Part shown: in pieces, positions 3,442 through 23,816 of the stretch
Layout of the letters: each line of letters begins with the position of its first letter
Numbering within the stretch: the stretch's first letter is position 1
Assembly: GCA_016208765.1 (NCBI GenBank)
Contig: JACQXK010000032.1
Coordinates: 118,385-182,384 of the forward strand
Length of the DNA stretch: 64,000 nt
Direction of reading: 5' to 3'
DNA from: Candidatus Omnitrophota bacterium
GTDB taxonomy: Bacteria > Omnitrophota > Gorgyraeia > Gygaellales > Profunditerraquicolaceae
Translations under genes and position numbers: made by a program
Notes under the pieces: model-generated
The model's database searches: none
What the model saw: only the letters and a program-made list of their open reading frames with translations
Told to the model about the DNA's origin: nothing

Positions 3442-3442
3442 A

Positions 3443-3937: not shown

Positions 3938-3974
3938 TTTTCGTTTATCGCTTTGGCTTTAAGTTTTTCGCTTT

Positions 3975-4793: not shown

Positions 4794-5859
4794 ATAATTT
4801 TCTCAAAATATAACGGATATCAATCTTTCCCGGACAAACATCAATACACCTACCGCACCCGCAGCAGCCTTGTATGCCTAAATTATCAACAAAAAAATCA
4901 AACTTTTTTAAATAACGGTTGCGTAAACGCATATAACGCATCTTTAAAGGATTCGCCCCTCCGGCTACCCGTGAGAAATTCTTAAACATACATCCATCCC
5001 AAAGCCGCAACCTCTTGGCATTATCACCTGCAGGCTCGTCTGAAAGTAAAAAACAATGGCAGGTATCGCACATGAACACGCACCCGCCGCATTCAACACA
5101 GGTCTGCATCTGTTCATCCCAGACCTTGGAATTCAATCCGGAAAGCACAATCTCCTTTAGGACATCTTTCTTGGGAATCTTGTGGCAGGAAAGATGCTCA
5201 TCCATTTTCTTGATTACATTTTCCCTTTTCGCCGCCCTGCCCGAGGTTTGCCCCAAGCCAGCCGCAACAAAAATGTCTTTTAAAGAATCCGTAATGCGCC
5301 TTGCTTTATCCGAGGCAACATCTACAAGAAAACCTCCGGTAAGCGGAGAAAGATTAAAATCAAAACCCTCAGAAGCGTGAGGATTAATATCAAATGCCCG
5401 GCAAAAACAGGCTTCCTTAAAATTAGGACAATCACTGGAAATAATCAGGGCGTTTGATCTTCTTTCCTGGTATAGAGGATCTATTTCATTACCACCTAAA
5501 AAAACAAAATCCTGGATTTTTAATGAAAAAATATCACAATTCTTAACTCCGCAGATAGCCGGAGGTTTTTCCTGATTGTTTTGCGGTTGGTCCTTAAAAT
5601 AAGTGCAGGTTTCTTCCTTTATATAGGTAAGAAATGTGCGGATTGGCTCAATGCAACGGTAATCGTTATAAACTATATCTTCTTTATTTACTTCTGAAAA
5701 CTTCCTGAGGGCATAGTCATCGCTGGGCAGATTAAACCCGTAATCACATTTAATGCGGGAAGATGTTTCTACTCTCACAGGCACAAAGAGCTCGTATTCT
5801 TGTGCTATACGGTTGTAGAATTTAAAGACATCCTCGTCTTTTAGAAAATACGTTTCCAT
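4765..5859 (-). CDS. Fe-S subunit of the sulfhydrogenase beta (HydB) / anaerobic sulfite reductase AsrA family
   Basis: 364 aa with many Cys, including CVECGGCVFMCDTCHC and CCGCGRCIDVCP ferredoxin-like motifs. Size and Cys pattern match HydB/AsrA-type proteins that pair with the gamma/AsrB subunit; it is the first gene of the operon. Confidence 0.6.
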   Translation of the reverse strand: METYFLKDEDVFKFYNRIAQEYELFVPVRVETSSRIKCDYGFNLPSDDYALRKFSEVNKEDIVYNDYRCIEPIRTFLTYIKEETCTYFKDQPQNNQEKPPAICGVKNCDIFSLKIQDFVFLGGNEIDPLYQERRSNALIISSDCPNFKEACFCRAFDINPHASEGFDFNLSPLTGGFLVDVASDKARRITDSLKDIFVAAGLGQTSGRAAKRENVIKKMDEHLSCHKIPKKDVLKEIVLSGLNSKVWDEQMQTCVECGGCVFMCDTCHCFLLSDEPAGDNAKRLRLWDGCMFKNFSRVAGGANPLKMRYMRLRNRYLKKFDFFVDNLGIQGCCGCGRCIDVCPGKIDIRYILRKLYEEKYLSAV

Positions 5860-8851: not shown

Positions 8852-9769
8852 CTAAATGACTTCTAACATCCTGTCTATTGCCTTTTTTGCACGCTGGCGT
8901 ATTTCATCAGAGACCCTGACTTCTTCTTTCAATTCTTCCAGCGCCCAAAGTATCTTTTCCTGTGTGGTCCGCTTCATGTTAGGGCAGGCCGCCCTTTCAG
9001 AAGCAGGATAAAATTCTTTTGCAGGGTTATCTTTTTTAAGCCTGTAGATCAGGCCAACCTCTGTACCGATGATCATTTCTTTTGCCTCAGTTTCCTTGGC
9101 ATATTTAGACATCTGGCTTGTAGATAATACTGCGTCTGCCATGGATACAACAGCAGGCAGGCACTCCGGATGTACAATCACCTTGGCAAAAGGATGGAAT
9201 TTTCTTTCTCTTTTAATATCTTCAGGTAAAATCTTGATATGAGTCGGGCAAAAACCGTTCCAGCTGATCAGCTTACGGCCGGTATTCTTAGAGACATAAT
9301 CCGCCAGATATTTATCCGGAACAAAAATAATCTCCTCATAATCGCGCAAGGCATTTACTACCGCAATGGCATTGGTAGAAGTGCAGCAATAATCTAATTC
9401 CGCTTTTACCTCTGCCGATGTATTCACATAACCAACAGCCACAGCCTTGGGATGCTCTTCTTTTAGTTTTCTTAATTCCTGCGCAGTGATCATATTTGCC
9501 ATCGGACAGGCAGCATGAACATCAGGCATGATCACCAACTTGTCCGGAGAAAGGATGGAAGCAGTCTCAGCCATAAAATGCACGCCGCAAAAAACAATCA
9601 CCTTGGCATTGGTAGTAGCTGCAATACGGCTCAATTCCAGGGAATCCCCGCGGTAATCTGCCACATCCTGCACCTCGGGAAGCTGATAATTATGCGCCAG
9701 GATTATGGCGTTACGTTTTTTCTTCAGCTCTTTAATTTTTGTTTCTACTTCTGAAATTTCTTTTTTCAT
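8852..9769 (-). CDS. nadA: quinolinate synthase
   Basis: 305 aa with NadA hallmarks (ILAHNYQ, VHFMAETA, HPEC..., Cys ligands). Confidence 0.85.
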   Translation of the reverse strand: MKKEISEVETKIKELKKKRNAIILAHNYQLPEVQDVADYRGDSLELSRIAATTNAKVIVFCGVHFMAETASILSPDKLVIMPDVHAACPMANMITAQELRKLKEEHPKAVAVGYVNTSAEVKAELDYCCTSTNAIAVVNALRDYEEIIFVPDKYLADYVSKNTGRKLISWNGFCPTHIKILPEDIKRERKFHPFAKVIVHPECLPAVVSMADAVLSTSQMSKYAKETEAKEMIIGTEVGLIYRLKKDNPAKEFYPASERAACPNMKRTTQEKILWALEELKEEVRVSDEIRQRAKKAIDRMLEVI

Positions 9770-9773
9770 TGCC

Positions 9774-10841
9774 TTAACTTATTACCCTTTCAATAAAACC
9801 TCCCCCCACAACAGTATCTTTATCATAAAATACAGCTGACTGCCCGGGGGTAATGGCAAATTGCGCTTTACGAAAAACTACTTTGCATCTTCCTCTTAAA
9901 GGCAGGATGTCTGCCAAAGCTTCTTTGTGATTATACCTTATCCGCACTTTAAGAGCAACTTTCTTTTTTATCGGCCCTAAGATAAAATGCGCCTTTTTGA
10001 TTAAAAAAGATTTCTTGCAGGCTTGCTCTCTTGTGCCGACAACTAATTGGTTCTTTTTGACATCAATCCGGTTAATATACAAAGGATATCCCCTGGAAAC
10101 ACCAAGCCCCTGCCGCTGGCCAATTGTATAAAAAGCAATACCATTGTGCTGTCCCAGCACATTTGCTTTTTCATCTGTTATCAAACCTTTTTTTAGTGCC
10201 TGCGGAATATGCTTTTTAAGAAAATCACGGTAATCACTGTTTGCCAAAAAACAGATTTCCTGGCTGTCAGCTTTTTTAGCTACCGGAAGCTTAAATTTCA
10301 CAGCCAATTCCCGCACCTGTTGCTTTGTAAAGCCTGCTAAAGGAAAAATTATATTTTTGAGCTGCGCCTGAGAAAGCCGGTACAAGAAATATGATTGATC
10401 CTTGCTCAAATCCCCGGCTTTTTTTAAAAGATATTCCTGCTGTCTTGTTTTACTCCCGGATAGATGCACTATTCTTGCGTAGTGGCCGGTAGCAATCTTA
10501 TCAGCACCCAGGGCCTTAGCGTTATTTATCAAAATTCCAAATTTGATATACTGGTTACATTTTACGCAAGGATTTGGAGTTTTCCCGGAAAGGTATTCAT
10601 TCAAAAAGTCTTTAATCACAATGCCTTTAAAACTGTCTTTCAAATTTACAACATAATGTTTTATTCCTAATTTTGCGCAGACCCTCTTGGCATCTATGAT
10701 ATTTTTATTTGGCGCAGATCCTTTCCGTATCCCAAAATCCATGGTGATCCCGAATATATCAAAACCCTGTTGCTTAAGTAAACACGCTGCCACCGAGGAA
10801 TCAACCCCTCCGCTCATTGCCACTGCCACGCGTAATGCCAT
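9774..10841 (-). CDS. mnmA: tRNA-specific 2-thiouridylase
   Basis: N-terminal AMSGGVDSSVAA PP-loop, catalytic Cys region (CVKCNQYIKF) and C-terminal barrel domain. 355 aa. Confidence 0.85.
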   Translation of the reverse strand: MALRVAVAMSGGVDSSVAACLLKQQGFDIFGITMDFGIRKGSAPNKNIIDAKRVCAKLGIKHYVVNLKDSFKGIVIKDFLNEYLSGKTPNPCVKCNQYIKFGILINNAKALGADKIATGHYARIVHLSGSKTRQQEYLLKKAGDLSKDQSYFLYRLSQAQLKNIIFPLAGFTKQQVRELAVKFKLPVAKKADSQEICFLANSDYRDFLKKHIPQALKKGLITDEKANVLGQHNGIAFYTIGQRQGLGVSRGYPLYINRIDVKKNQLVVGTREQACKKSFLIKKAHFILGPIKKKVALKVRIRYNHKEALADILPLRGRCKVVFRKAQFAITPGQSAVFYDKDTVVGGGFIERVIS

Positions 10842-11163: not shown

Positions 11164-12954
11164 CTACCATTCAAATTTTAATCCCGATTGGATCCAGCGC
11201 CCGGGCTGCAAAACTCCGGAAATCTCAGTATATTTCGCATTGCTGAAGTTGTCAATCTTTACAAACGGCTCAAAGATATAATCCCGGTAGTGGATTTTTT
11301 TGCCTAAATATAAGTTACCCACAAAATAAGTTTCCCCATAATACCTCTGGTTATAAGATAACTGAAAATTAGCCTCCAGCCCTAAAAAACCGGAGAAAAT
11401 CTCCAAAAGATACCGGTGTTTAAGAATATCCAGTGCATATTTTGAAAGAAAACCCCCTGTATTTTTATCTGCCAACATATAGTTATATGAAAAAGCGGCT
11501 TTATCAAATGAGGCATATTTAAATTTCAAATTTGTCTTTAGCTTTGATTTAAACTCAACTCCCCAGAAATCCACCTTGCCTAAATTTGTTGCCTGCCAGG
11601 GGTCAGCTGTGGTTGCGCGCGTCCAATCAATCAAATTATGCCCTTTGCGCAAGAATCCATCAAGCCCAAGTTCAAGGATATTCTGAGCATAATCAAAGCC
11701 TATCCTAAAATTATCAGATTTCTCCGGTTTTAATTCAGGATTTCCCTTATTTGCCGCATCAGAATAATAAAGTTCCGTAAAAGTGGGTATCCTGAAGGAA
11801 TGGCCAAATGAACCGTTAACTTTTAACCGCTCTTTGATCAGATCATACCCTAAGCCTGCGCTATATGTCTCTTCGTCTCCCCATTGCTGATAATTATCAG
11901 CGCGAAAACGCAGATCCGCAGTAAACTTGTCTCCAAGCTTAGGAACTATTCCAAATGAGCCTGCCTGATGAAAACGAGAGTGTTTTCCTAAATTAGTAGA
12001 ATTAATCTGATCCTCTGCGATATTTACTCCAAAAACAAAATCTGCTAAACGCGCAGGAATTTCCAACTCTGAATCAATGCCGGAAAGATACGTTGTGTGA
12101 TAATTTACAGAAGTAGGATTATTTCTTCTTAAAATAAACTTGTCGCGGTGTTTCCTGAAAAATAAATTATCCTTAAGCTTGCCAAGGGAAAAATCTGAGG
12201 TATGCCCAAGTTTTGTAAAAACTGTTTCAGTATGCTCTTCTTCTTCCGGAAATAAATTAGAATAAAAACTATCTGCTCCAAAATCTTTCTTCTGATAACC
12301 AAACAAGGCATTGATATTTGTCTGGGCGAGGTCTTTATCTATGTAAAAAGAAGCTGTTTTATATTCAAAATCTGTGTTTGGGCGCGCAGCCTTTGCAATT
12401 TTGTGGTCAAATGAGACGCGCGTAGAAAAACTCTCCTGCGGCAGGCTTAAAGAAAATGACTGTCCGAATAAAGCATGCTCGCCGAAAAGCGTATCAATAT
12501 TTAATGATTTCTTAACAGGTTTCTTAACGATAAAATTTACGCTCCCTGCAAAGGCACCGTTTCCATAAAGAGACCCCACCCCGGTCTTATCAATTTCTAT
12601 TTTTTCCAAATCATACTGAGTAAGAGGAATATCCAAATTATGATGGCCGGTCTGAGGGTCATTAACATTTACCCCATCTATCAAGATTCCCACCTGCTCA
12701 TAGGTAGAGCCGTTTAAAGAAAGATCAGATTGAATACCAAATGGGCCGCGGTTACGTAAATCAACCCCTGCCACCCTATCAAGCACTTCAACCGGAGAAT
12801 TAACATTTTCTTTGCGTATTTGAGATCCGCTAAGGCTCTCAAAAGAATAATTAACAGGCCTGATCACAATATCATCAAGCTTGTATTTATCTTCTGCCCC
12901 CGCTAAAGAAAAGACTGCAAAGATTATTAAAATAACAGAAATAATTATTTTCAT
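11164..12954 (-). CDS. TonB-dependent outer-membrane receptor (short, BtuB-like size)
   Basis: N-terminal signal peptide; plug-domain motifs (DDIVIR...VLDRVAGV, NGS...ILIDGV), a beta-strand-rich body and an aromatic C-terminal residue (...KFEW). 596 aa. Confidence 0.8.
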   Translation of the reverse strand: MKIIISVILIIFAVFSLAGAEDKYKLDDIVIRPVNYSFESLSGSQIRKENVNSPVEVLDRVAGVDLRNRGPFGIQSDLSLNGSTYEQVGILIDGVNVNDPQTGHHNLDIPLTQYDLEKIEIDKTGVGSLYGNGAFAGSVNFIVKKPVKKSLNIDTLFGEHALFGQSFSLSLPQESFSTRVSFDHKIAKAARPNTDFEYKTASFYIDKDLAQTNINALFGYQKKDFGADSFYSNLFPEEEEHTETVFTKLGHTSDFSLGKLKDNLFFRKHRDKFILRRNNPTSVNYHTTYLSGIDSELEIPARLADFVFGVNIAEDQINSTNLGKHSRFHQAGSFGIVPKLGDKFTADLRFRADNYQQWGDEETYSAGLGYDLIKERLKVNGSFGHSFRIPTFTELYYSDAANKGNPELKPEKSDNFRIGFDYAQNILELGLDGFLRKGHNLIDWTRATTADPWQATNLGKVDFWGVEFKSKLKTNLKFKYASFDKAAFSYNYMLADKNTGGFLSKYALDILKHRYLLEIFSGFLGLEANFQLSYNQRYYGETYFVGNLYLGKKIHYRDYIFEPFVKIDNFSNAKYTEISGVLQPGRWIQSGLKFEW

Positions 12955-13033
12955 TACTTATAAACTCCGCATCTTACTTCAGATTCTTCCCCTTCGCCTT
13001 CGGCTCAGGGTCAGAATGACGCGTTCCGTAATT

Positions 13034-13078
13034 GTACAAAAAAATAAACCGGCTTTTATTATATAAAGGCCGGTTCAA
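13034..13078 (-). terminator. rho-independent terminator downstream of birA
   Basis: Minus-strand hairpin AACCGGCC-loop-GCCGGTT (forward 13049..13077) followed by a U-run (forward A-run 13036..13047), 30-60 nt after the birA stop. Confidence 0.6.
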
Positions 13079-13110
13079 CTGTCAACTAATTTTATTTTTT
13101 CAGTTTACAA

Positions 13111-14067
13111 TTACCTGCAATGCACAACATCCCCAGATAAGACCCTTTCAATTACCCCGGTGTCTCTTCTTACAAGAAGGCCCCCGTCAGTATCAATGTC
13201 AACCGCATCGCCTTCAATATGCTGCTTCTGGCAATAAACTTTTATGCGCCTTCCCAGAGTAATATTATAATGCCGCCATTTCTCAAGGATTTTCCCCCGG
13301 CCCTTATCCTGAAGAAGCAAATAATTCTCCTCCATTTTCAATAATATCTCCTGCAGTAATTTAACACGGTTAACTTCCTCTTTTTTCTCTTCCTTTAAAG
13401 AAGTTGCCTGGCTGACCAGGGCCTTTAAATCATTATTCACATTCAGCCCCAGGCCAATAACAACAAAATTAACCTTGTCAATCTCTGCATTAAGTTCCGT
13501 CAATATTCCGCCTATTTTCTTATTGCCAATTAACAAATCATTTGGCCATTTGATCTGCAGATCTAAATTACAGGCATCTTTTACTGCTTCACAGATACTT
13601 ACTGCCGCAAGAAGCGTTAGCAAAGAGGCCTGATTAGGTAAAATCTTCGGCCTTAAGATTATTGATAAATAAATCCCTTTATGTTTAGGTGAAAACCAAA
13701 TACGCCCGAGCCTGCCACGGCCCTTTGTCTGTGTCTCAGCAATAATTAATGCCCCATCAGCAGCTGATTTCATTCCTAACTCTACGGCTACATCCATTGT
13801 TGAAGAAAGCGCATCGTAATAGTATATCTTTCTTCCGAAAAATTTGGTTTTTAAGCCTGAAAGTACTTCGGCAGCAAACAAGCGGTCAGGCGCACTATCC
13901 AAACGATACCCCAAATGAGGCACGGCTACAATTTCGTAACCGGCATCACGCAACTCCTGAATATGCTTCCAAAGCGCCTGGCGAGTTATTCCAAGTTTAT
14001 GGCTCAACTGGTCCCCGGAAAAATACCCGTCTTCCTTTCTTAAGAAATCTAAGATTTTTTCCTGCAT
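13111..14067 (-). CDS. birA: bifunctional biotin operon repressor / biotin-protein ligase
   Basis: N-terminal HTH (LSHKLGITRQALWKHIQELR), central ligase motif GRGRLGRIWFSP (GRGRxGR) and a C-terminal SH3-like domain. 318 aa. Confidence 0.85.
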   Translation of the reverse strand: MQEKILDFLRKEDGYFSGDQLSHKLGITRQALWKHIQELRDAGYEIVAVPHLGYRLDSAPDRLFAAEVLSGLKTKFFGRKIYYYDALSSTMDVAVELGMKSAADGALIIAETQTKGRGRLGRIWFSPKHKGIYLSIILRPKILPNQASLLTLLAAVSICEAVKDACNLDLQIKWPNDLLIGNKKIGGILTELNAEIDKVNFVVIGLGLNVNNDLKALVSQATSLKEEKKEEVNRVKLLQEILLKMEENYLLLQDKGRGKILEKWRHYNITLGRRIKVYCQKQHIEGDAVDIDTDGGLLVRRDTGVIERVLSGDVVHCR

Positions 14068-14873
14068 AAATAATCCTTTAAGTTCTCATTTAAGCTGCCG
14101 GTACGATAACCTGCCAAATCTAAAGTTACATAATTATAGCCGGCCTCTTTTAAACCCTTAAGCACTCTTAAACGTTTACTCACTAACAGAGGAACATATT
14201 TCTTCTCCACTTCAATCCGGCATAACTCGCGATAATCCCTTACCCTTACCTGTCTAAACCCGATTTTCTTTAAAAAAGATTCTGCCTTTTGAATCCGGCT
14301 AAGCACATCAGCAGTAATTTTTATACCATAAGGCACTCTTGAAGCAAGGCAGGCCATGCTTGGCTTATCCCAAGTATCAAGTTTCATCTTTTTGCTTAAC
14401 TTACGAATATCTTTTTTAGTAAAACCAGCATCTACAAGCGGAGAAAAAACCCCTAATTCTTTTAAAGCAGTTCTCCCGGGCCTAAAGTCTTTCTCATCGG
14501 AAATATTACTGGCGTCAATAACACAACTAAGCCCATATTTACGCGCCAGACCTTTAAGCCGTAAAAACAAATCCTTCTTGCAAAAATAACAACGCTGATA
14601 AGAATTCCGCACAAATTTTTTGTTTTCTAACTCAGCTGTATTAATTATTTTATGCCTTACGCCTATTTTTCTAGCAAATTTCTTTGCAGATAATAGTTCC
14701 TCCTGCGGATATGTCTTGGAATTTGCTGTTATAGCAAGCAAGTTATTCTTTGGGAGGACCCCGGCGCAAAGGCTCAAAAGAAATGAGCTGTCCAAGCCTC
14801 CTGAAAAAGCTATCAGGCAAGAGCCGCAATCTCTAATAATTTGTTTTAATTTGTTTAATTTTCTCTCAAAGGC
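14049..14873 (-). CDS. LarE-like PP-loop ATP pyrophosphatase / sulfur transferase (TIGR00268 family)
   Basis: LIAFSGGLDSSFLL PP-loop close to the N-terminus and an ACLASR motif like the sacrificial-Cys motif of LarE. Start taken at MAFERKLNKL (ATG 14873), which abuts the upstream gene's end (14876); the track ORF starts at 14939. Confidence 0.6.
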   Translation of the reverse strand, partial: AFERKLNKLKQIIRDCGSCLIAFSGGLDSSFLLSLCAGVLPKNNLLAITANSKTYPQEELLSAKKFARKIGVRHKIINTAELENKKFVRNSYQRCYFCKKDLFLRLKGLARKYGLSCVIDASNISDEKDFRPGRTALKELGVFSPLVDAGFTKKDIRKLSKKMKLDTWDKPSMACLASRVPYGIKITADVLSRIQKAESFLKKIGFRQVRVRDYRELCRIEVEKKYVPLLVSKRLRVLKGLKEAGYNYVTLDLAGYRTGSLNENLKDYLCRKKS

Positions 14874-14875
14874 CA

Positions 14876-15283
14876 TCAAAAACGCACTTCCATCGCTCTC
14901 GTCGGGCAGATCCTTACGCACAACTCGCAGGCAATACACTTTTTATCATGGAAAATTATTTTGCGGGATTCCTGGTCAACCGTCAAAGCGCCGGCAGGAC
15001 AAATCGGAACACACACTCCGCAATGGGTGCATTTTTCTTCATTGCGAATAACATCCTGGCTCAAAGGCTGGATCTTGACACCGCAGGAGTTTAAATATTC
15101 AATCCCTTTGTCAAAATTCTCCTTTTTACCGGTAAGTTCAAGGACCATCAAGCCCTCTTCCTGCGGAGTAACAGAGGCTTTAAGGATGTTGAATTTTAAA
15201 TCAAATTCCTTGACCAGTTTATAAACAATCGGCTGATCCACCAAGCGATGAGGAAAATGTAAAACTATTCGTTTGGAAGTCAT
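14876..15283 (-). CDS. NIL-domain / 2x[4Fe-4S] ferredoxin fusion protein (homocysteine-synthesis partner, MA1822-like)
   Basis: 135 aa. The N-terminal half resembles the MetN C-terminal NIL domain. The C-terminal half has CTHCGVCVPICP and CIACELCVRICP ferredoxin motifs. It sits next to the DUF39 gene. Confidence 0.7.
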   Translation of the reverse strand: MTSKRIVLHFPHRLVDQPIVYKLVKEFDLKFNILKASVTPQEEGLMVLELTGKKENFDKGIEYLNSCGVKIQPLSQDVIRNEEKCTHCGVCVPICPAGALTVDQESRKIIFHDKKCIACELCVRICPTRAMEVRF

Positions 15284-15293
15284 ATATCTCTCC

Positions 15294-16499
15294 TTAGCTT
15301 AACGATGGATTTTGTTTTAAAGGCTTAAATGCATACCCGGATTCAGCTCCCGGGATGTTTGCCACCGGCTCGCTCAAAGTAAAATCGCCTTTTTTGATCC
15401 ATGACTTAAGTGTTTCTGCGATTTCGCGCGCTTTGGAATAACTGGATAAATTACCCGTCGGTATTTCTTTATTCTGCACAACGATCTTACCTGTCTTAAG
15501 CTGCGCATAACTCACCTGAGCAAGCGAGCCTGGAATACAATTAGGATAATTGTTGCTATAATCAATTACCTGCGTAAATATTTCCTCATCTCTTGCTGCG
15601 GCATATTTAACAACATCTTCATCTAAAACAGGTATCGGCACGCCGATCCCGACAATCATGGTTACCCCATAACCAACCATACTTGTCCCCACCAGCCACT
15701 CCGGCTTCATTTGCTTTAAATCCCCGATGACTGCCAATGTGCCTGCAGGGACCTTTGGAATGCCATTATCAGACCTTGGCACACCGGGGTTATGCTGAGT
15801 GCCGTGCCAGGCGACAAAACCAATGCCTCCTCCAAGGAATATCTTTGTTCCCACACCTATGGTTTTATAGCAGGGGTCTTTTAAAAGCGGAGAAAGCTGT
15901 CCTGCCGAGCAATAATTAGCATTGCCTAAATTCGGCTTCAATACACCCATATAGGTATAGACCATTTTATCCGACAAGTTAACAGCCACATTATAATTCT
16001 GATAGCAGTTGCGTATATTAAATAAAACTGCTTCATTTAGGTCTTTAAGATTAATTGCAGTTTCTAATTTTTTTAAAGGATAACAATCCGTGCCATAAGC
16101 CGTTGCCTCCAAAGATACATTTTTGCCTTCCAAAAGTTCATGAATAACATGCCCTCCGCCATATTTAAATTCACCCGGATAAACCTTGTTACGCGGGTCA
16201 TCGTCGGGGATAGCAGTTGCACCCAGAAAAATATCAACCGCAGCAAGCCCTGTATAGGCAGGGACATCGTTTAGCTTACACACTCCTCCGCCTAATTTAA
16301 TTCGCGGCTTGGAGTGGCCAATATTAAAATAAGCGCCTGATGAACACATCGGGCCGAAAGTGCCGGTAGTAACCACATCTACTTCCTGCGCAACCTTCTT
16401 TAAGCCTTTTTTCTCAACCAAATCAGCCACTTCCTCAGCGGTAACAACCACTGCCTCGCCCTTCCTGATCTTTTCATTGATTTCTTTTATTGTCTTCAT
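15294..16499 (-). CDS. DUF39/COG1900 family protein (sulfide-dependent homocysteine biosynthesis, MA1821-like)
   Basis: 401 aa. Length, the conserved TGTFGPMCSSGA block and pairing with a NIL-ferredoxin gene match the COG1900 homocysteine-synthesis family. Confidence 0.6.
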   Translation of the reverse strand: MKTIKEINEKIRKGEAVVVTAEEVADLVEKKGLKKVAQEVDVVTTGTFGPMCSSGAYFNIGHSKPRIKLGGGVCKLNDVPAYTGLAAVDIFLGATAIPDDDPRNKVYPGEFKYGGGHVIHELLEGKNVSLEATAYGTDCYPLKKLETAINLKDLNEAVLFNIRNCYQNYNVAVNLSDKMVYTYMGVLKPNLGNANYCSAGQLSPLLKDPCYKTIGVGTKIFLGGGIGFVAWHGTQHNPGVPRSDNGIPKVPAGTLAVIGDLKQMKPEWLVGTSMVGYGVTMIVGIGVPIPVLDEDVVKYAAARDEEIFTQVIDYSNNYPNCIPGSLAQVSYAQLKTGKIVVQNKEIPTGNLSSYSKAREIAETLKSWIKKGDFTLSEPVANIPGAESGYAFKPLKQNPSLS

Positions 16500-16510
16500 T
16501 GTGCTTGCCC

Positions 16511-16732
16511 CTAAACAGAGATAACCTCTTTTACCTCTGGAACTTCTTGTTTAAGTATTCTCTCAATCCCCATCTTTAATGTCATCTGGCTCATCGGGCA
16601 GCATCCACAAGCGCCCTTTAATTTTAATTTTACTACACCATCTGCGCTTACCTCTACTAATTCCACATTTCCACCGTCTGCCATAAGCATCGGCCTGATT
16701 TTTTCTAACGCCTTTTCTACTTTATCTTTCAT
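16511..16732 (-). CDS. NifU-like (Nfu) Fe-S cluster carrier domain protein
   Basis: 73 aa with a GACGCCPMS motif (CxxC of the NifU C-terminal domain). Confidence 0.7.
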
Positions 16733-16745
16733 AACTCTCTCCTTG

Positions 16746-17675
16746 TTATTTATACAATATCGTGCTTAAATATCTTTCTCCTGAATCAGGCAATATTACC
16801 ACAATAAGTTTTCCTTTATTTTCTTTTCTCTGTGCTATCTTTAAAGCTGCCCAAGCCGCGGCTCCGGAAGAAATACCGCACAAAATACCTTCCTGGCGAG
16901 CAAGTTTATTAGCAACCTGAACTGCATCTTCATCTGAAACAGCAATTACCTCATCAAGAATATCCCTATTTAAAACTTCAGGTATAAAACCTGCGCCTAT
17001 TCCCTGGATCATGTGCGGCCCGGGTTTTCCTCCGGACAAAACTGCAGAAGCTAAAGGCTCAACCGCAAATACTTGAAGCTTTGGGTTCTTCTTTTTTAAC
17101 ACTTCTGCAACCCCTGTTATTGTACCGCCGGTTCCCACGCCTGCAATCAAGATGTCAATCTTTCCGTCGGTATCACGCCAAATCTCAAGGGCAGTAGTCA
17201 GGCGATGCGCCTGCGGATTAGCTGGATTCTTAAATTGCTGCGGCAGGAAACATCTTTCACTGCTCTTTGCCAACTCTTCAGCTTTTTTAACCGCTCCATT
17301 CATACCCTCTTTTCCTGGAGTAAGCACAATTTCCGCACCAAAAGCAGATAACAGCTGCCTGCGCTCAATACTCATTGTATCCGGCATAGTTAAAACCAGC
17401 TTGTAGCCTTTCACTGCGCAAACAAAAGCCAAAGCAATCCCGGTATTCCCCGAGGTTGGTTCAATGATAATGGTATCAGGAGTAATTTTGCCTTCTTTTT
17501 CAGCCTGTTCAATCATGCTTAAACCAATACGATCCTTTAACGAAGAACAAGGATTAAAAGATTCCAATTTTGCCACAATTTCAGCGCTGCATCCTTGGGC
17601 AATCTTATTAAGGCGCACTAAAGGCGTGTTTCCAATCAACTCTGTAATATCTTTTGCGATTTTCATTTTATGCAC
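16746..17675 (-). CDS. cysK: cysteine synthase (O-acetylserine sulfhydrylase)
   Basis: GNTPLVRL, the PLP-binding Lys region (SSLKDR), [12 protein letters not shown] and GTGGT motifs. 309 aa. Confidence 0.85.
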
Positions 17676-17678
17676 CTC

Positions 17679-18119
17679 TTAAATTTGATAAACAAAATTT
17701 CCCTGAGATTTTCTGGATTTCTTTACTAAATCTTCAAAGGTAACTTCTTCAAGAATCTTCTCAGTAGCATTTGTTATTTTCTGCCAGATATCGCGAAAAA
17801 CACATTTATCAATGTCGCGGCACCTGCGGTATTTCTTATCAACGCAGGCAATCGGCTCAACCGGCCCTGCAACAAAACGCACAACCTCTAATAACCCAAT
17901 TTTAGAAGGATGCTTGGCCAATAGATACCCTCCGACTTTACCACGCCTGCTCTCTACAAAACCTCCGCGTTTTAAATCAAGAAGTATCTGCTCCAAAAAC
18001 TTGATGGGTATGTCAGAACGTTTAGCCAGCTCATGAATAGTTACCGGCTCCTCTCCATAATGTATGGCAAGGTTCAAAATTGTCTTTAAAGAATAATCGC
18101 TTTTATAAGTTATTCTCAT
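17679..18119 (-). CDS. Rrf2-family transcriptional regulator (IscR/CymR-like), likely Fe-S liganding
   Basis: N-terminal wHTH typical of Rrf2 (YSLKTILNLA...) with three clustered Cys (CVDKKYRRCRDIDKC). It is the first gene of the cysK / NifU / DUF39 operon. Confidence 0.75.
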   Translation of the reverse strand: MRITYKSDYSLKTILNLAIHYGEEPVTIHELAKRSDIPIKFLEQILLDLKRGGFVESRRGKVGGYLLAKHPSKIGLLEVVRFVAGPVEPIACVDKKYRRCRDIDKCVFRDIWQKITNATEKILEEVTFEDLVKKSRKSQGNFVYQI

Positions 18120-18131
18120 CGTCCTTCTCTA

Positions 18132-18148
18132 TAATGTCTATTACATTA
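18132..18148. promoter_or_regulatory. 17-bp perfect palindrome (TAATGT-CTATT-ACATTA), candidate Rrf2 operator
   Basis: Seen directly in the sequence, 13-29 nt upstream of the Rrf2 ATG and just downstream of the predicted -10. Confidence 0.35.
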
Positions 18149-18152
18149 GTAG

Positions 18153-18180
18153 AGTTTACACGATAATTCAGCTTTGTCAA
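18153..18180 (-). promoter_or_regulatory. candidate sigma70 promoter of the Rrf2-cysK operon
   Basis: Minus strand TTGACA (18180..18175) - N16 - TAAACT (18158..18153). Confidence 0.35.
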
Positions 18181-18252
18181 GTATTTTGTTAGGATTTTCA
18201 AAATGCTGCACAATTGATTTTATGTATTATACTGACAGCACAAGATAATTTA

Positions 18253-18433
18253 GCAATAAAAGTTTCTCTTCGCACACGAGATAATTTGGCGTCTTCTGCG
18301 GTTTATGACTCGCTTTCGTAACGGCTTACGCAAAAAACTCTATACTCTCGCTCGTCATAAATCCTTGAAGACTATAAATAATAACGCGTTGCCAAAAAAT
18401 CTCTGATTGTGTGCTAACAGAAACTTTTATTGC
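18253..18433. repeat. about 181-bp MITE-like element with about 40-bp imperfect terminal inverted repeats (copy A)
   Basis: The left end GCAATAAAAGTTTCTCTTCGCACACGAGAT pairs with the rev-comp of the right end (GCAATAAAAGTTTCTGTTAGCACACAATCAGAGAT). The internal part has its own 8+ bp inverted repeat (TTTATGAC...GTCATAAA). The rev-comp of the whole element aligns at about 85% identity with 27076..27254. Confidence 0.7.
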
Positions 18434-18459
18434 TTTGTGCTTTGGATTTTATTTTGCGG

Positions 18460-18614
18460 GTGACAAGGCATGTTTCGAGCAGCATGTTAGAAAGCTCTTG
18501 CGGGCATGGTTCGCCTGCTATCACATAGTTGGCGAGAGCAAGAGCTTTCTACCGAGCGAAGATTTTCCACGCTGGGGAAAATCAAGCGGTGCTGCGAGAA
18601 ATATGCCTTGGCAC
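18460..18614. other. GC-rich 155-bp structured element (24-bp inverted-repeat arms enclosing two hairpins); candidate ncRNA or second MITE-like element
   Basis: GTGACAAGGCATGTTTCGAGCAGC (18460..18483) pairs with GCTGCGAGAAATATGCCTTGGCAC (18591..18614). Inside are an 11-bp perfect hairpin (AAAGCTCTTGC...GCAAGAGCTTT, 18491..18548) and an 8-bp hairpin (GATTTTCC...GGAAAATC). GC content is much higher than the flanks. Confidence 0.5.
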
Positions 18615-18656
18615 CTGAATACTTAAAATACAAGACTTGGCTAAATTTATAATTTT

Positions 18657-18947
18657 CTACGCGATTATTTTTAAAACTTCTTTGATAGGCTGGCCCTTAA
18701 AGATCCCCATCTTGCGGGCAGAAGAAGTGCAGGAATGAACACCTGTATTAATGGTTTGTTTAATTGAAGACACGCCTGTAACCTTTATAGCAACATCTTT
18801 AAATTTATCGGCGACTTTTAAATTTAAATATCCGCACATAACATAACCTTTGCTTCCTCTCAATAAAATCAAATTTTTACTAGCAAGCTTTATTAGATAC
18901 GCTTCAATATGTTTATTACCAATTTTTATCTTCTTTTGCTTTATCAC
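18657..18947 (-). CDS. DUF1805 (YunC-like) domain protein
   Basis: 96 aa. A central LILLRGSKGYVMCGYLN block resembles the conserved GYIMCG core of the YunC/DUF1805 family. Confidence 0.5.
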   Translation of the reverse strand: MIKQKKIKIGNKHIEAYLIKLASKNLILLRGSKGYVMCGYLNLKVADKFKDVAIKVTGVSSIKQTINTGVHSCTSSARKMGIFKGQPIKEVLKIIA

Positions 18948-19333
18948 AACGCCCCCTTCTTCTCCAATTTCTTAATCTTATTCCAATTCCTGATAATTTC
19001 GTGGCTGGATTTAACTTTAACCTTGCCAAACACATGCGGGTGACGGCGTTTCAGCTTCTTAATTAATCCATCAATTACATCTTCAATATCAAATTTATTT
19101 TCCTTAGAGGCAATTTGCGCATGAAACATAACCTGCAACAAAATATCCCCCAATTCCTCCTTCATGTGGTTAAGATTTCCACCATTTACAGCAGAGATAA
19201 ATTCTCCACTCTCCTCTTTAAGATACTTCAACAGGCTTTTATGCGTCTGCTTTTTATCCCAGAGGCAACCAACTGGCCCATGCAGAATTTGGAAAATTTC
19301 TCTTAGTTGAATAAATTTTGTTGTTTTAGACAT
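18944..19333 (-). CDS. MazG-type nucleotide pyrophosphohydrolase domain protein
   Basis: 129 aa with EExxE..ELGDxL metal-binding helices (EESGEF...EELGDILLQV) and a RRHPHVF motif. Confidence 0.7.
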   Translation of the reverse strand: MSKTTKFIQLREIFQILHGPVGCLWDKKQTHKSLLKYLKEESGEFISAVNGGNLNHMKEELGDILLQVMFHAQIASKENKFDIEDVIDGLIKKLKRRHPHVFGKVKVKSSHEIIRNWNKIKKLEKKGAL

Positions 19334-19355
19334 ACGTGGATGATTGGAAAGAAAA

Positions 19356-20318
19356 TCAAGCCTTAAAATCTTTAATTATTTCTCCGAGCATTTCTTCAAG
19401 CCCCACTTTAGGAATATAGCCTGTATATTTCTTTATCTTAGACAAATCAGGGATCCTGCGCTGCATATCCTCAAAGCCATCCCCATAGGCATCCTTATAA
19501 GAAATATAATGAATTACAGATTTACTATTGGTAAGTTTCTTGATTTTGTGCGCGAGTTCCTCAACGCTGATCTCTTCATCGTTGCCAATATTAAAAACCT
19601 CGCCAAAACATTTAGAAGTTTCTAATAATTTAATTATCCCATTTACAATATCCCCGACATAGGAAAAGCACCTTCTCTGTTTTCCATCGCCGTAGATTGT
19701 AATCGGCTGGTTTAAAATAGCCTGTTTAATAAAACGCGGCACCACCATCCCGTATTCTCCGGTTTGACGCGGGCCGCAGGTGTTAAAAAATCTCGTAATT
19801 ACAACCGGGATTTTATGCTCTTTAAAATACGCAAATGCCAAAAACTCATCAAGTTTTTTTGTGCAGGCATAGCTCCAGCGGTAAAGCTTGGTGTAGCCGA
19901 TTATGCTATCATCCTCTTCTTTAAAGGGGACCTTATTATTTTTTCCGTAAACCTCAGAAGTTGAAGCAATCAAAACCGGCGTATTAGACCTGCTTGCCTC
20001 TTCAAGAATAATTTCTGTGCCGCGCACATTTGTAGTGATGGATTTTAAAGGATTATCAATAATATATTTAACTCCCACAGCAGCAGCCAAATGATAAACG
20101 CAATCAACATCTTTAATCAGGCGCGACATCAGTTTTTCATTCATGATACTTTCAAGATGAAACTTAAAATGCTCATGATGCTTAAGATGCGCGATATTAT
20201 CAAGCTTTCCGGTGGACAGGTCATCCACAGCTACTACGCTGTTATTTTGCGAAAGCAGCTTATCTGCAAGATGCGACCCAATAAAACCCGCTCCTCCGGT
20301 AATCAATACTTTCTTCAC
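19356..20318 (-). CDS. NAD-dependent sugar-nucleotide epimerase/dehydratase, UDP-glucuronate decarboxylase (UXS/ArnA-C)-like
   Basis: N-terminal ITGGAGFIGSHL Rossmann motif, a YxxxK catalytic pair (SYACTKK) and a GDGKQRRCFSYVGD block resembling the UXS/ArnA decarboxylase subfamily. 320 aa. Confidence 0.7.
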   Translation of the reverse strand: MKKVLITGGAGFIGSHLADKLLSQNNSVVAVDDLSTGKLDNIAHLKHHEHFKFHLESIMNEKLMSRLIKDVDCVYHLAAAVGVKYIIDNPLKSITTNVRGTEIILEEASRSNTPVLIASTSEVYGKNNKVPFKEEDDSIIGYTKLYRWSYACTKKLDEFLAFAYFKEHKIPVVITRFFNTCGPRQTGEYGMVVPRFIKQAILNQPITIYGDGKQRRCFSYVGDIVNGIIKLLETSKCFGEVFNIGNDEEISVEELAHKIKKLTNSKSVIHYISYKDAYGDGFEDMQRRIPDLSKIKKYTGYIPKVGLEEMLGEIIKDFKA

Positions 20319-20320
20319 TT

Positions 20321-21358
20321 TTATTTCCTTTGTTTTGCCATATGATGCTGGCGCATTTTTACTTGATGTAATTTCCAGATACCCCAGATAAAAAATAAAA
20401 TAAAACCGGATGATACCAATATAGCGCTCTTTATTCCGTCTTTAGGTATTGAAATTGCGATACAAACCAGGACAAAATTAATAATATAAATAAACATCAC
20501 TGTTTCCCTCTGGCTCAGGCCCATGTGTGTAAGTCTATGCGATAAATGATCTGTATCCGCGTGTTCAAGCCACTGCCTGAACGTGCGTACCTTTCCTTCA
20601 GCTATCCTTAAAACAGTGATCATGGATGTATCAAAAATCATCACCCCGAGCATTAAGACAGGGATTGTTACGGCGATTAACTTACTTTCCGACCAAGAAG
20701 CCATTATTGCCATAGATGAAATAACAAATCCAAGAAACGTACTTCCGGAATCTCCCATAAATACTTTAGCAGGATTAAAATTATAGCGTAAAAATCCCAA
20801 AGTACTACCTAATAAACTAATGCTCAGAAAAACCAGCCACCTCTGGCCGGTTTTATAAGCAATTGCAGCTATACCGAAACAACAGATTGCCGCAATTCCC
20901 CCGGCAAGACCGTCCATATTGTCTAAGAAATTCAAAGCATTAGTAATACCGACGATACCGGCAACAGTAAAGAATACATTAGCAGCATCCCAAGGAAAAA
21001 CTTTAATTACTACGCCATGCGCTACCACCACAATACATGCCACCAACTGAAAAAAAAGCCTTAACGACGCGCGTAAATGCCGCATATCATCAATCACGCC
21101 AATAAACATAATAATGCTTGCGCCTATCAATATCCCGCGCAGCTGAGTATTATAATCAAAACTGGAAAGCGTTCCGATGACAAACGCCATATACATTGCC
21201 ATGCCTCCTAATTTAGGCATTGGCTGTTTATGAATTTTGCGGCTCTTAGGATGGTCCAAAATATCAAATTTAAAAGCAAGCCTCATACATAAAGGCACCA
21301 GAAACAATGAAGCGATTAAGGAAATAATTGCTACTCTTATATATTGGCTGACAATCAT
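20321..21358 (-). CDS. polyprenyl-phosphate HexNAc-1-phosphate transferase (WecA/MraY family), initiating transferase
   Basis: About 10 TM segments and an ITNALNFLDNMDGLAGG motif (NxxNxxDGxDGL of the MraY/WecA family). 345 aa. Confidence 0.8.
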   Translation of the reverse strand: MIVSQYIRVAIISLIASLFLVPLCMRLAFKFDILDHPKSRKIHKQPMPKLGGMAMYMAFVIGTLSSFDYNTQLRGILIGASIIMFIGVIDDMRHLRASLRLFFQLVACIVVVAHGVVIKVFPWDAANVFFTVAGIVGITNALNFLDNMDGLAGGIAAICCFGIAAIAYKTGQRWLVFLSISLLGSTLGFLRYNFNPAKVFMGDSGSTFLGFVISSMAIMASWSESKLIAVTIPVLMLGVMIFDTSMITVLRIAEGKVRTFRQWLEHADTDHLSHRLTHMGLSQRETVMFIYIINFVLVCIAISIPKDGIKSAILVSSGFILFFIWGIWKLHQVKMRQHHMAKQRK

Positions 21359-21361
21359 CGG

Positions 21362-22411
21362 TTAATCTACTATCGCCTTAAGCGTTTTAGTAATAATATG
21401 CCTGGCCTTTTGGCTACTTAACTCTGGATATATGGGCAAAGAAATGGTGTTTTTAAAAACTTCATTGGTAGAAGGGAAATCACTGCTTTTAAATCTTAGA
21501 TATTGATGCAAGGGCCTAAAAACCGGCTTCTTTGCTTCAATGCCTGACTTTTGCAATTTTTCAACTAAAACATCAGCGCTATTCTTGCTTCTTATAACAT
21601 AACGAAAATAAACATGCTCTTTATTCTGGACAGGTAAAGGTAAAATCAACCCAGAATCAGCGAAAGATTTATTATACATCTTGGCAATCCTTTGTCTACG
21701 GGAAATAAACTCAGGGATTTTCTTTAACTGCTCTAAGCCCATTGCCGCAGCCAGATCATTCATTTTGTAATTAAAACGCAGGTGATAATCAGGCTTATTA
21801 TCATAATCTTTTAAATCTCTGACAAAATCAGAAACCTTTTTGTCGTTGGTAAGGATCATCCCGCCTTCTGCAGTCGTAAGCATTTTTGTAGCATAGAAAG
21901 AAAATACAGAGATCACGCCAAAACTTCCTATATTTTGCCCCTTATAAGTTGCTCCCACTGCCATGGCACAATCCTCAATAACCGGTACGCCAAGCTTTAG
22001 CAATTCTCTTAAATCTGCAGCCAGTCCGAACATATGCGGCACGATTATCGCCTTAGTTTTATTAGTAAGCGCTTCTTTTACTGCAAAACGGCAAATATTA
22101 AAAGACTCCGGGTCAATATCCACAATCTTTACTGTTGCACCGGTATAATTAACGGCATTTAAAACCGCAGTACAAACATAACTGGGGATGATTACTTCAT
22201 CTCCTTTTCTTATTTTTAATGCCAATAAAGCAAGGTGCAAACCTGATGTGCCTGAATTAACCGCTGTTGCAAAACGCATACCGATAAAATCAGCTAACCC
22301 CTGTTCAAACTTACCAGTTAACTTACCCTCGGCAATAAAACCGCTTTTTAAAACAGAATTCAGGAATTTTATTTCCCTAAAATTAATGGATGGTTTTGAG
22401 TGTGGGATCAT
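21362..22411 (-). CDS. DegT/DnrJ/EryC1/StrS-family PLP-dependent sugar aminotransferase (ArnB-like)
   Basis: 349 aa with typical N-terminal blocks (VNSGTSGLHLAL..., ...DIDPE...) and a Lys-containing SFYATK region. Confidence 0.8.
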   Translation of the reverse strand: MIPHSKPSINFREIKFLNSVLKSGFIAEGKLTGKFEQGLADFIGMRFATAVNSGTSGLHLALLALKIRKGDEVIIPSYVCTAVLNAVNYTGATVKIVDIDPESFNICRFAVKEALTNKTKAIIVPHMFGLAADLRELLKLGVPVIEDCAMAVGATYKGQNIGSFGVISVFSFYATKMLTTAEGGMILTNDKKVSDFVRDLKDYDNKPDYHLRFNYKMNDLAAAMGLEQLKKIPEFISRRQRIAKMYNKSFADSGLILPLPVQNKEHVYFRYVIRSKNSADVLVEKLQKSGIEAKKPVFRPLHQYLRFKSSDFPSTNEVFKNTISLPIYPELSSQKARHIITKTLKAIVD

Positions 22412-23093
22412 TCTTTAAAATAATTTCTAAGGATTTCGGCCCATAATTAAACAATAAATCAGCAATTGCCAAATCCGGAACAAAACCCGCTTTCATATAT
22501 TGCTGTTTGTATTCAGGGCAATGCCAATCTTGCAAAGAAACTTTTATACCTGCATCATTAAATACTTTTTCATCAAGATAAACTTCCAAAGCATACGCAC
22601 CGGACAGATATGTATCAGCGCCTAATTCTTTGCAAATATTCACCAAACGAAGCGATTCTATTCCGGGAACGCTTAATTCAGAAGACTTGACTATCTTTTG
22701 CTTAAGGCCCAGGCATTCAAGATAGAAAAAAAACATTTCATAATTAATATCATTTAAATTCTCCCAGTCTTTTTGATAAATATTCTCAAAAAAACTCTTA
22801 TATTCCTTAAAATAGGGAGCCTTGCTGTAATTAAAGCACAAAGAATTCCAGTGCTTTTTGCGCCAATTTTGTGAATTATCAATTTTAACTTCGTTAATAT
22901 TCTGCTGAAACTTATTATAAACCGGGACAGTTAAATATGACCAACCCTGGGCAGTTTTAATTTTATTGCGATTCTGCCAGCCGTTTTTATTAAACTGAAT
23001 ATCATCCATGACTACAAATATATCTGAATGATAAATTTTATGAAAATAACGCAACCAGGGAAAGTAATGCAGCTGGTGAGCAGAAAGAATCAT
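22383..23093 (-). CDS. WbqC-like family protein
   Basis: 236 aa. The N-terminal MILSAHQLHYFPWLRYFHKI matches the conserved (Q/H)P.YFPW..YF start of the WbqC family (PF08889) found in O-antigen clusters. Confidence 0.55.
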   Translation of the reverse strand: MILSAHQLHYFPWLRYFHKIYHSDIFVVMDDIQFNKNGWQNRNKIKTAQGWSYLTVPVYNKFQQNINEVKIDNSQNWRKKHWNSLCFNYSKAPYFKEYKSFFENIYQKDWENLNDINYEMFFFYLECLGLKQKIVKSSELSVPGIESLRLVNICKELGADTYLSGAYALEVYLDEKVFNDAGIKVSLQDWHCPEYKQQYMKAGFVPDLAIADLLFNYGPKSLEIILKNDPTLKTIH

Positions 23094-23096
23094 TTC

Positions 23097-23816
23097 TTAA
23101 ACTACAAACCTGTGGCACATAAATGCCTCTGCAGCCTCTACTGAAATTTCACGGCCGCGCACCTTGGCAAGGTTCTCAATATTCTCAAGGCTGGCATGAT
23201 GAATTGAAGGCTTCATCTGTGACTTATGAAATGACACAGCTTTTAATTTTTTATCAAGATATTTAGAAATATCCACATAAAAAGTAGGATGAAATTTCTC
23301 ACGCTCAAGGCTCCAGGAGATTGCCGGATTATCACAGGATAAAACAATTTTCTGAAATGGCTTAACATCCGGTAAATGCGGCCTGCAAGCGGTAAAGCCG
23401 GCACGAAATACAGCTTCATGATCCTGGTTATATGAGGCTGCCGGTAAAATCATCATTGTCGGCTTAATCCGGTCAATAGACAGCTTGCATTCTCTTTCAA
23501 AACAATTTACCAGGTCCTTGCGCGGGATGGCATCTAAACGTAAATGCACTTTTGTATCATTAAAAACAACTTCATAGTCATCAACTTTTAAATATTTCAT
23601 TGCCCCTTCAAATTCTTCATTACGGGTATTTCCATTAACAACCATATCATTGCTTTTTGGCCCGTAATGCACAACCTCTCCCACAGAAACTACAATCACA
23701 TAAACTTCAGCCCCAAGGTCTTTCATCTTGGCAATTGTCCCGCCGCAACCAAAGACCTCGTCATCAGCATGCGGAGCCAAAACCAAACATTTTTGTTTCT
23801 TTAAGAATGCATCCAT
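23097..23816 (-). CDS. PIG-L/LmbE-family N-deacetylase
   Basis: LVLAPHADDEVFGCGGT (HxDDE...GCGG zinc-site signature) and an HxDH region (NQDHEAV). 239 aa. GGAGGA RBS 5 nt upstream. Confidence 0.8.
   Translation of the reverse strand: MDAFLKKQKCLVLAPHADDEVFGCGGTIAKMKDLGAEVYVIVVSVGEVVHYGPKSNDMVVNGNTRNEEFEGAMKYLKVDDYEVVFNDTKVHLRLDAIPRKDLVNCFERECKLSIDRIKPTMMILPAASYNQDHEAVFRAGFTACRPHLPDVKPFQKIVLSCDNPAISWSLEREKFHPTFYVDISKYLDKKLKAVSFHKSQMKPSIHHASLENIENLAKVRGREISVEAAEAFMCHRFVV

Follow-up and report, generated by a model that had tools for sequence, protein, structure and literature searches.

L-ASST, the sulfurtransferase acting on L-aspartate semialdehyde, is needed on genetic evidence for making homocysteine in Desulfovibrio and Methanosarcina, and in D. 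vulgaris only three proteins, DUF39, a NIL-ferredoxin and COG2122, are needed for it (PMC5764234). The COG1900a proteins at the center of this system carry two near-universal cysteines, one of them essential, which correspond to Cys54 and Cys131 in MA1821 numbering (PMC12068725). A second described system is the LarE of T. maritima, a [4Fe-4S]-dependent, non-sacrificial type of sulfur insertase that retains all of its cysteines, turns over catalytically and takes its sulfur from a cysteine desulfurase (PMC9283937). Here we describe an operon in which genes of both kinds stand side by side, found in a 64,000-nucleotide (64-kb) stretch of DNA from a Candidatus Omnitrophota bacterium (contig JACQXK010000032.1, assembly GCA_016208765.1), hereafter called the window. 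The DUF39 protein (HcyBio) and the NIL-ferredoxin (NIL-Fd) of this operon are predicted to form a further instance of the known L-ASST system, here in the uncultured phylum Omnitrophota. We consider it likely that the whole is an Rrf2-controlled sulfur-incorporation operon in which LarE is an ordinary [4Fe-4S]-class LarE sharing the sulfur and Fe-S supply of its neighbors.

The operon consists of seven consecutive genes on the minus strand (13111-18119). Its features, in the direction of transcription, are as follows.

18153-18180, minus strand: promoter-like site upstream of the Rrf2 gene, TTGACA, 16-nt spacer, TAAACT (consensus scan)
18134-18154, minus strand: operator-like palindrome (imperfect), CTCTACTAATGTAATAGACAT, lying between the -10 box and the start codon of the Rrf2 gene (conservation in relatives)
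17679-18119, minus strand: Rrf2-family regulator, 146 aa, with Cys92, Cys100 and Cys106 (PF02082, 127 bits; TIGR00738, 122 bits)
16746-17675, minus strand: CysK, cysteine synthase A (O-acetylserine sulfhydrylase) (TIGR01139, 478 bits, cut-off 351; PF00291)
16511-16732, minus strand: Nfu-type NifU C-terminal domain protein, 73 aa, motif GACGCCP (PF01106, 102 bits, full profile)
15294-16499, minus strand: HcyBio/DUF39 (COG1900a), 401 aa, predicted catalytic subunit of L-ASST (PF01837, 509 bits)
14876-15283, minus strand: NIL-domain plus 2x[4Fe-4S] ferredoxin, predicted electron-donor subunit of L-ASST, MA1822 type (PF09383, 65 bits; Fer4 families)
14049-14876, minus strand: LarE, PP-loop ATP-dependent sulfur insertase, 275 aa, predicted [4Fe-4S] (CxxC...C) class (TIGR00268, 309 bits, cut-off 150)
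13111-14067, minus strand: BirA, bifunctional biotin ligase/repressor (TIGR00121, 228 bits; HTH_11, BPL_LplA_LipB and BPL_C domains)

Every family assignment exceeds its curated cut-off. The genes are separated by gaps of 3-13 nt or overlap: the NIL-ferredoxin gene starts 10 nt past the HcyBio stop, the ferredoxin stop codon and the ATG of LarE run into each other (TGATG), and birA shares 19 nt with the 3' end of the LarE gene, a coupling as tight as that of LarE itself. No terminator-like site of note was seen within the operon, and an Rfam scan of 12500-19500 returned no riboswitch or leader, with a sub-threshold L20-leader match only. A perfect sigma-70-like promoter at 13085-13058, after birA, lies ahead of the next gene; birA is the last gene of the transcription unit and is probably functionally unrelated to it. 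The initial annotation, which named six of these genes as one operon, had their places, strand and identities right, together with the cysteine-containing Rrf2 protein at its head. Its end of the operon has to be moved downstream, into birA, and its start of LarE, the GTG at 14939, is replaced by the ATG at 14876. The GTG would make LarE overlap the ferredoxin gene by 64 nt; homologs start at the ATG, as does the deposited protein MBI4707518.1 (Candidatus Omnitrophota), to which the 275-aa product is identical.

The prediction of L-ASST activity is carried first by the DUF39 protein, which covers all 349 positions of the PF01837 profile. With TIGR03287, the model for MMP16, it reaches 128 bits against a cut-off of 364, and because it lies so far below this MMP16/coenzyme M-synthase threshold it is classed as the homocysteine (COG1900a) type. 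Cys52 and Cys139 are invariant among 98 homologs and would fit the description of the two near-universal COG1900a cysteines. The NIL-ferredoxin carries two CxxCxxCxxxCP motifs (Cys85-95 and Cys116-126). These scores uphold the initial annotation, in which the pair had been taken for the MA1821/MA1822 system of homocysteine synthesis.

Named counterparts of the pair are MA1821/MA1822 of M. acetivorans, DvMF_1464/DvMF_0262 of D. vulgaris and DET0921-DET0919 of Dehalococcoides. The window shares with these L-ASST systems a full-length PF01837 protein, whose two invariant cysteines probably match theirs, and a separate, neighboring ferredoxin with a NIL domain and two [4Fe-4S] sites; like them, its DUF39 protein is not of the fused MMP16/ComF type. 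The linkage to cysK and an Rrf2 gene is likewise as in the other bacterial phyla sampled, with Rrf2-CysK-HcyBio-NIL-Fd clusters found in metagenome-assembled genomes (MAGs) labelled Dehalococcoides, Dehalococcoidia/Chloroflexota, Deltaproteobacteria and Elusimicrobia. Compared with the known systems, the window operon holds the Nfu carrier, LarE and BirA in addition. A partner of the COG2122/MA1715 type was not seen among the operon genes, and the genome was not searched for one.

LarE was compared in 50 sequences, comprising the window protein, 48 LarEs from Omnitrophota clusters and one from Paenibacillus. Its SGGLDS motif occupies residues 25-30, with S25, G27, D29 and S30 invariant in the comparison. 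The motifs RCYFCKK and MACLASR supply a cysteine triad, Cys96, Cys99 and Cys176, that is invariant as well. In the alignment with L. plantarum LarE, whose own Cys176 is catalytic, the window protein has Ala175 at that position and its cysteine one residue later. The published signature of [4Fe-4S]-dependent, non-sacrificial LarEs is exactly this one: CxxC...C, with the third cysteine shifted by one residue from L. plantarum Cys176 and alanine in its place (PMC9283937). On these motifs we assign the window LarE to the [4Fe-4S]-dependent, non-sacrificial class of T. maritima and M. maripaludis. The residues that bind the phosphate of pyridinium-3,5-biscarboxylate mononucleotide (P2CMN), Ser180, Arg212 and Arg214 in L. 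plantarum, are conserved as Ser179, Arg211 and Arg213 in 50 of 50 sequences.

Comparisons with known structures are in line with this assignment. Against the structures of L. plantarum LarE the window protein aligns at E=1.6e-47 to 5.5e-47, and against 8cnz, a chain that also carries the CxxC...C motif, at E=7.6e-19. With L. plantarum LarE (5udq, E=5.5e-47, alignable residues 10-266) it shares the fold family, the ATP site and the substrate-phosphate residues; L. plantarum LarE differs in having Trp/Ala where the window protein has its CxxC pair and a single Cys176 opposite the window alanine. With T. maritima LarE (PMC9283937) and the 8cnz chain it shares SGGxDS, the CxxC...C triad, the alanine at the Cys176 position and the phosphate-binding Ser/Arg/Arg. 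T. maritima LarE has a fourth cysteine that the window LarE does not have. Its dependence on a desulfurase for turnover is matched by a NifS gene directly downstream of LarE in most relatives. The window gene differs from that of T. maritima in lying inside a cysteine/homocysteine operon, with no larB or larC adjoining and no desulfurase gene in the operon. From the CLASR motif the initial annotation had deduced a sacrificial sulfur transferase; given the CxxC pair and the alanine at the Cys176 position, a sacrificial mechanism is not expected, and an L. plantarum-type LarE with a single catalytic Cys176 and no CxxC was rejected on the same residues.

In the mechanism that we propose, CysK would convert sulfide to cysteine, and HcyBio with NIL-ferredoxin, as a two-subunit L-ASST, would fix sulfur reductively into homocysteine. 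The Nfu-type protein, a probable Fe-S cluster carrier, would serve the Fe-S-dependent members. By analogy with T. maritima LarE, the window LarE would adenylate the carboxylates of P2CMN and then turn them into thiocarboxylates, the sulfur coming from a non-core sulfide that is bound to the cluster's open iron; this would be a step in the synthesis of the nickel-pincer cofactor. NifS and/or sulfide, together with Nfu, would feed the LarE cluster, and from there the thiolation of P2CMN. LarE would thus sit in the operon for common use of sulfide or cysteine-desulfurase-derived sulfur and of the Fe-S supply, and not as a requirement of L-ASST. NifS would have been lost from its position after LarE in the window genome, and birA would simply be carried at the 3' end.

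The relation of LarE to L-ASST was examined in 80 species-representative genomes with a close HcyBio homolog, in which the neighboring genes were mapped and counted (related loci bear labels of the form L plus a number). LarE lies in the cluster in 39 of 50 evaluable Omnitrophota-labelled loci, 11 being without it, and in 7 of 9 evaluable loci with Planctomycetes-type labels, where the cluster architecture is alike. The 10 evaluable loci that belong to other, named phyla all retain Rrf2-CysK-HcyBio-NIL-Fd, and none of them has LarE. The L-ASST cluster can do without LarE.

These counts bear on the sulfur-relay partnership with DUF39 that had been suggested for LarE in the initial annotation. 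Under that proposal LarE would give or relay sulfur specifically to the DUF39/NIL-ferredoxin pair, for example bringing cluster-bound sulfide or persulfide to the essential DUF39 cysteine and so replacing COG2122. It draws on the overlap of the LarE start codon with the ferredoxin stop, on the lack of lar genes nearby in Omnitrophota, and on the order NIL-Fd then LarE, which recurs in the main Omnitrophota clade, in L103, L106 and L132 and, with MnmA between, in L114, L118, L153 and L162; the sulfur species used by L-ASST is, moreover, still unknown (PMC12068725). Set against this, LarE is missing from L-ASST clusters of Dehalococcoidia and other Chloroflexota, Deltaproteobacteria, Elusimicrobia, Latescibacterota and the 11 Omnitrophota loci, and the D. 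vulgaris fitness data flag only DUF39, NIL-ferredoxin and COG2122 for homocysteine (PMC5764234). LarE retains its mononucleotide-phosphate-binding residues, L-ASST works on an aldehyde for which ATP-dependent adenylation is not obviously needed, birA is coupled just as tightly, and a second lineage, described below, has LarC beside the cluster. Relatives' operons hold other sulfur enzymes as well. We regard a dedicated relay as quite unlikely: against it stand the L-ASST clusters without LarE, the Desulfovibrio requirement for three genes (PMC5764234) and the intact substrate-binding residues, and LarE is probably not needed by L-ASST.

In most relatives LarE is followed, with a 4-nt overlap, by NifS (TIGR03402, 565 bits), sometimes by a PurM-family protein, and then by BirA; NifS is missing from this position in the window. 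The Rrf2-to-BirA stretch of relatives also holds Thi4 (sulfide-dependent ADP-thiazole synthase, TIGR00292), ThiM and ThiE, MetX and MetW, a Cys/Met pyridoxal phosphate enzyme, an IscU-type NifU scaffold and DUF169. Across relatives the operon looks like a mosaic whose enzymes make, pass on or use up reduced sulfur. In outline such clustering has already been noticed, since CysK, NifS, NifU, LarE, MnmA and HcyBio are listed as recurring around Thi4 genes, including those of an Omnitrophica MAG (Oliveira-Filho et al., ACS Omega 2026, PMC13325395). Those neighborhoods and the present ones are alike in clustering CysK, NifS, NifU, LarE, MnmA, HcyBio and ThiI in anaerobes, and the window's relatives hold Thi4 within the operon; the window operon itself differs in having neither Thi4 nor NifS. 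That work centers on Thi4, with the Rrf2 operator and the class of LarE outside its analysis (PMC13325395).

Beyond the operon the window has the same gene order as its relatives phylum-wide: BirA, a TonB-dependent receptor, MnmA, NadA and a pseudouridine synthase. Because gene order is conserved well past the operon, the conservation of LarE within the phylum is weak functional evidence. This same order lends itself to the view that adjacency is inherited gene order and nothing else, without common regulation or physiology, LarE being placed like BirA in a compact genome. To this explanation we give a low probability, as the genes gained and lost in the operon across lineages are overwhelmingly sulfur-related and LarE has NifS, CysK or Rrf2 in its vicinity in unrelated lineages as well (such as L108, L112, L156, L166 and L168).

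Several further observations were made in these neighborhoods. In several phyla, including loci in which LarE is lacking, a NifS-type cysteine desulfurase adjoins the genes for L-ASST, downstream of HcyBio/NIL-Fd in L076, L079, L064 and L103 and upstream of Rrf2 in L072; the neighboring NifS may supply the persulfide that has been reported on the cysteine of DUF39. Downstream of LarE in several Omnitrophota (L004 at 11964-12995, L030, L038, L058 and L091), a 343-aa protein of the PurM/AIRS family shows translational coupling to NifS; in the deltaproteobacterial MAG L079 (11544-12590) a copy with 48% identity comes after HcyBio and NifS. The protein scores below the HypE, ThiL and SelD cut-offs, making it an unclassified ATP-utilizing enzyme associated with sulfur genes. 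A DUF169 protein (PF02596, COG2043) lies between cysK and nifU in L010 (1146-1895), L018 (8949-9701) and L019 (4158-4901). Twelve MAGs labelled 'uncultured Planctomycetales/Planctomycetia' have HcyBio loci near those of Omnitrophota (L008, L018, L019, L021, L039, L040, L045, L054, L063, L070, L071, L084). Where their contigs are long enough, the Omnitrophota-type cluster runs on to BirA, and the labels are probably placeholder taxonomy.

To view the question from the side of LarE, 80 LarE loci with 44-60% identity to the window LarE were collected in a metagenome scan, a sample biased towards the query's relatives; 32 of them, with at least 1.5 kb on each side, were evaluable. HcyBio or NIL-Fd lies near LarE in 12 of the 32, LarB or LarC in 7 (2 of which are also near HcyBio/NIL-Fd) and NifS in 8, while 10 have no marker gene nearby. 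Canonical LarE-LarB-LarC clusters appear at 47-53% LarE identity (L101, L117, L124, L144, L149, L163, L165, L167), and the LarE of L101 has the motifs of the window protein. A Paenibacillus megaplasmid carries a LarA-like/SDR/LarE/LarB/LarC cluster whose LarE is 45% identical and has like motifs.

A second lineage (L114, L118, L153, L162) has the order LarC..TilS-Rrf2-CysK-HcyBio-NIL-Fd-MnmA-LarE-ThiI-like..Thi4. In L118 and L162 LarC is ~7 kb off and LarB does not occur within 15-18 kb; because of this spacing, dispersed lar genes are to be considered normal. A third arrangement, Rrf2-HcyBio-NIL-Fd-LarE-NifS, is found in L103. Against named loci, HcyBio of L162 and L103 reaches at most 75% identity and MnmA ~50% to several phyla, values that give no placement. 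The initial annotation had named larB/larC next to the LarE gene in relatives as part of what would speak against its relay proposal; such neighbors exist at 47-53% LarE identity, and in the second lineage LarC lies near the L-ASST cluster, so that this half of its refuting condition is seen. Directly after LarE, L162 (9758-10762) and L118 (8245-9249) encode a protein of 334 aa in which a ThiI-like PP-loop domain is joined to an RNA-binding domain of the NFACT-R_2 type; an FtrD-like membrane Fe-S protein and Thi4 follow.

The recurrence of LarE, and in one lineage LarC, beside the DUF39/NIL-ferredoxin genes could also be explained if the nickel-pincer cofactor were used by a protein of the operon, such as DUF39, as a hydride-transfer cofactor that reduces a thioaldehyde intermediate. 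Users of the cofactor other than LarA are still emerging (PMC13524815), and many genomes have LarB, LarC and LarE without LarA (PMC11796402). In other phyla, however, most DUF39 loci lack any lar gene within 10 kb, electrons are already supplied by the ferredoxin subunit, and lar genes were not flagged as methionine-rescued in D. vulgaris genetics (PMC5764234). We consider this use of the cofactor very improbable.

Returning to an ordinary LarE that shares the supplies of its neighbors, several observations weigh against it. With LarA, LarB and LarC queries from Paenibacillus and L. plantarum, tblastn gave no match at E<=1e-3 in the 64-kb window, as the initial annotation had stated for LarB and LarC, and none in 85 related loci (~75 genomes, +/-10 kb, ~1.3 Mb). 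Protein searches seeded with LarC from L101 and L162 returned no Omnitrophota-named LarC among the 120 nearest proteins listed, which does not in itself show absence. At least three lineages have LarE in the vicinity of L-ASST genes, a link that is more than incidental although the sample is biased to the query's relatives, and the LarE gene is translationally coupled to that of the NIL-ferredoxin. A neighbor-joining tree speaks for the ordinary LarE, since LarEs linked to L-ASST are spread over at least four positions among those linked to LarBC, without a deep split; its backbone is short and poorly resolved, so that the tree is indicative only. Control of the operon by Rrf2, finally, we infer from conservation.

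The missing lar genes, the loci without marker genes and the great breadth of TIGR00268, few members of which have been assayed, could all be accommodated by a LarE-family protein that acts on another carboxylate or nucleotide in a lineage without LarB and LarC, carrying out a thiocarboxylate step for an unknown sulfur metabolite. This is unlikely in our estimate. The lar genes are often dispersed, as L162 and L118 illustrate, and in T. maritima the desulfurase genes are far from larE (PMC9283937); every residue known to be functional in LarEs that use P2CMN is invariant, and the L-ASST-linked LarEs form no separate clade. Stated more broadly, LarE without LarB/LarC in Omnitrophota and at least two other uncultured anaerobic lineages might be either an ATP-dependent sulfur-mobilizing partner of L-ASST or the maker of an unknown thiocarboxylate, for which we see only a slim chance. 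Were it so, the order NIL-Fd-LarE(-NifS) would mark a three-component sulfur-delivery module for L-ASST. Altogether, a role of LarE tied to L-ASST or to another substrate keeps a small share of our expectation, and a nickel-pincer cofactor serving an operon enzyme a smaller one.

As for regulation, the Rrf2 protein scores below the equivalog cut-offs for both CymR (96 against 195) and IscR (94 against 208), and only the Rrf2 superfamily model passes. A promoter of the form TTGACAAA-N17-TATACT stands at the matching position in ~40 Omnitrophota relatives, and the operator word CTCTACTAnnnnnATAGAGATTATAGAG after the promoter is kept in about 30-40. Across the 64-kb window the operator pattern has one real match (CTCTACTAATGTAATAGACAT), against 0.23 expected by chance; this palindrome, at 18134-18154, is probably an autoregulatory Rrf2 binding site. 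In the proposed scheme a three-cysteine Rrf2 repressor, probably Fe-S sensing, would bind the palindrome overlapping its own promoter and set the expression level of the entire operon. CymR and IscR resemble the window protein in the Rrf2 fold, the three C-terminal cysteines, the cysK neighbor and a palindromic site that overlaps their own promoter. The window operator, CTCTACTA-N5-ATAGAG, is a prediction from conservation.

The region around the operon contains the following. Upstream of the Rrf2 promoter is a 537-nt gene-free spacer (18120-18656), 82.5% identical to L006, the closest relative, along 504 nt. The spacer holds a hairpin, TTTATGAC...GTCATAAA, and three AAATTATCTyGTG-like words, with no Rfam match; in most other relatives a coding gene ends directly before the Rrf2 promoter in its place. 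Immediately upstream (18657-19333) lie a MazG-type pyrophosphohydrolase, truncated, of 129 aa, and a DUF1805 protein, and in L036 and L047 a MazG gene terminates just ahead of the Rrf2 promoter. Beyond these, genes for sugar-nucleotide enzymes and glycosyltransferases make up the open reading frames scanned (19356-23816). Downstream of the operon, at a distance of three to four genes, 8852-10841 encodes NadA (quinolinate synthase) and MnmA (tRNA 2-thiouridylase) in the order seen in relatives. NadA supplies the pool of nicotinic acid adenine dinucleotide, the starting point of the nickel-pincer cofactor; the proximity of nadA and mnmA to the operon is probably conserved gene order only. At 471-5859, and in L088, there is a membrane-bound NiFe hydrogenase/Mrp-antiporter-like (Mbh-type) cluster with Fe-S/FAD oxidoreductase genes, which extends past the window start.

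Omnitrophota are an uncultured, often small-celled phylum. No new kind of system is revealed at present. The operon points to a homoserine-independent DUF39 route to homocysteine in this phylum, and to sulfur-consuming biosynthetic enzymes gathered behind one Rrf2 switch with a defined predicted promoter and operator. Should larB and larC prove to be absent from Omnitrophota genomes, it would be worth pursuing the LarE homolog. Of most use among the results are the conserved promoter and operator of the Rrf2 gene and the recurring L-ASST/LarE/NifS neighborhood, both as leads on sulfur delivery; the neighborhood bears on how sulfur is delivered to L-ASST and how cluster-type LarEs are supplied in sulfide-rich anaerobes.

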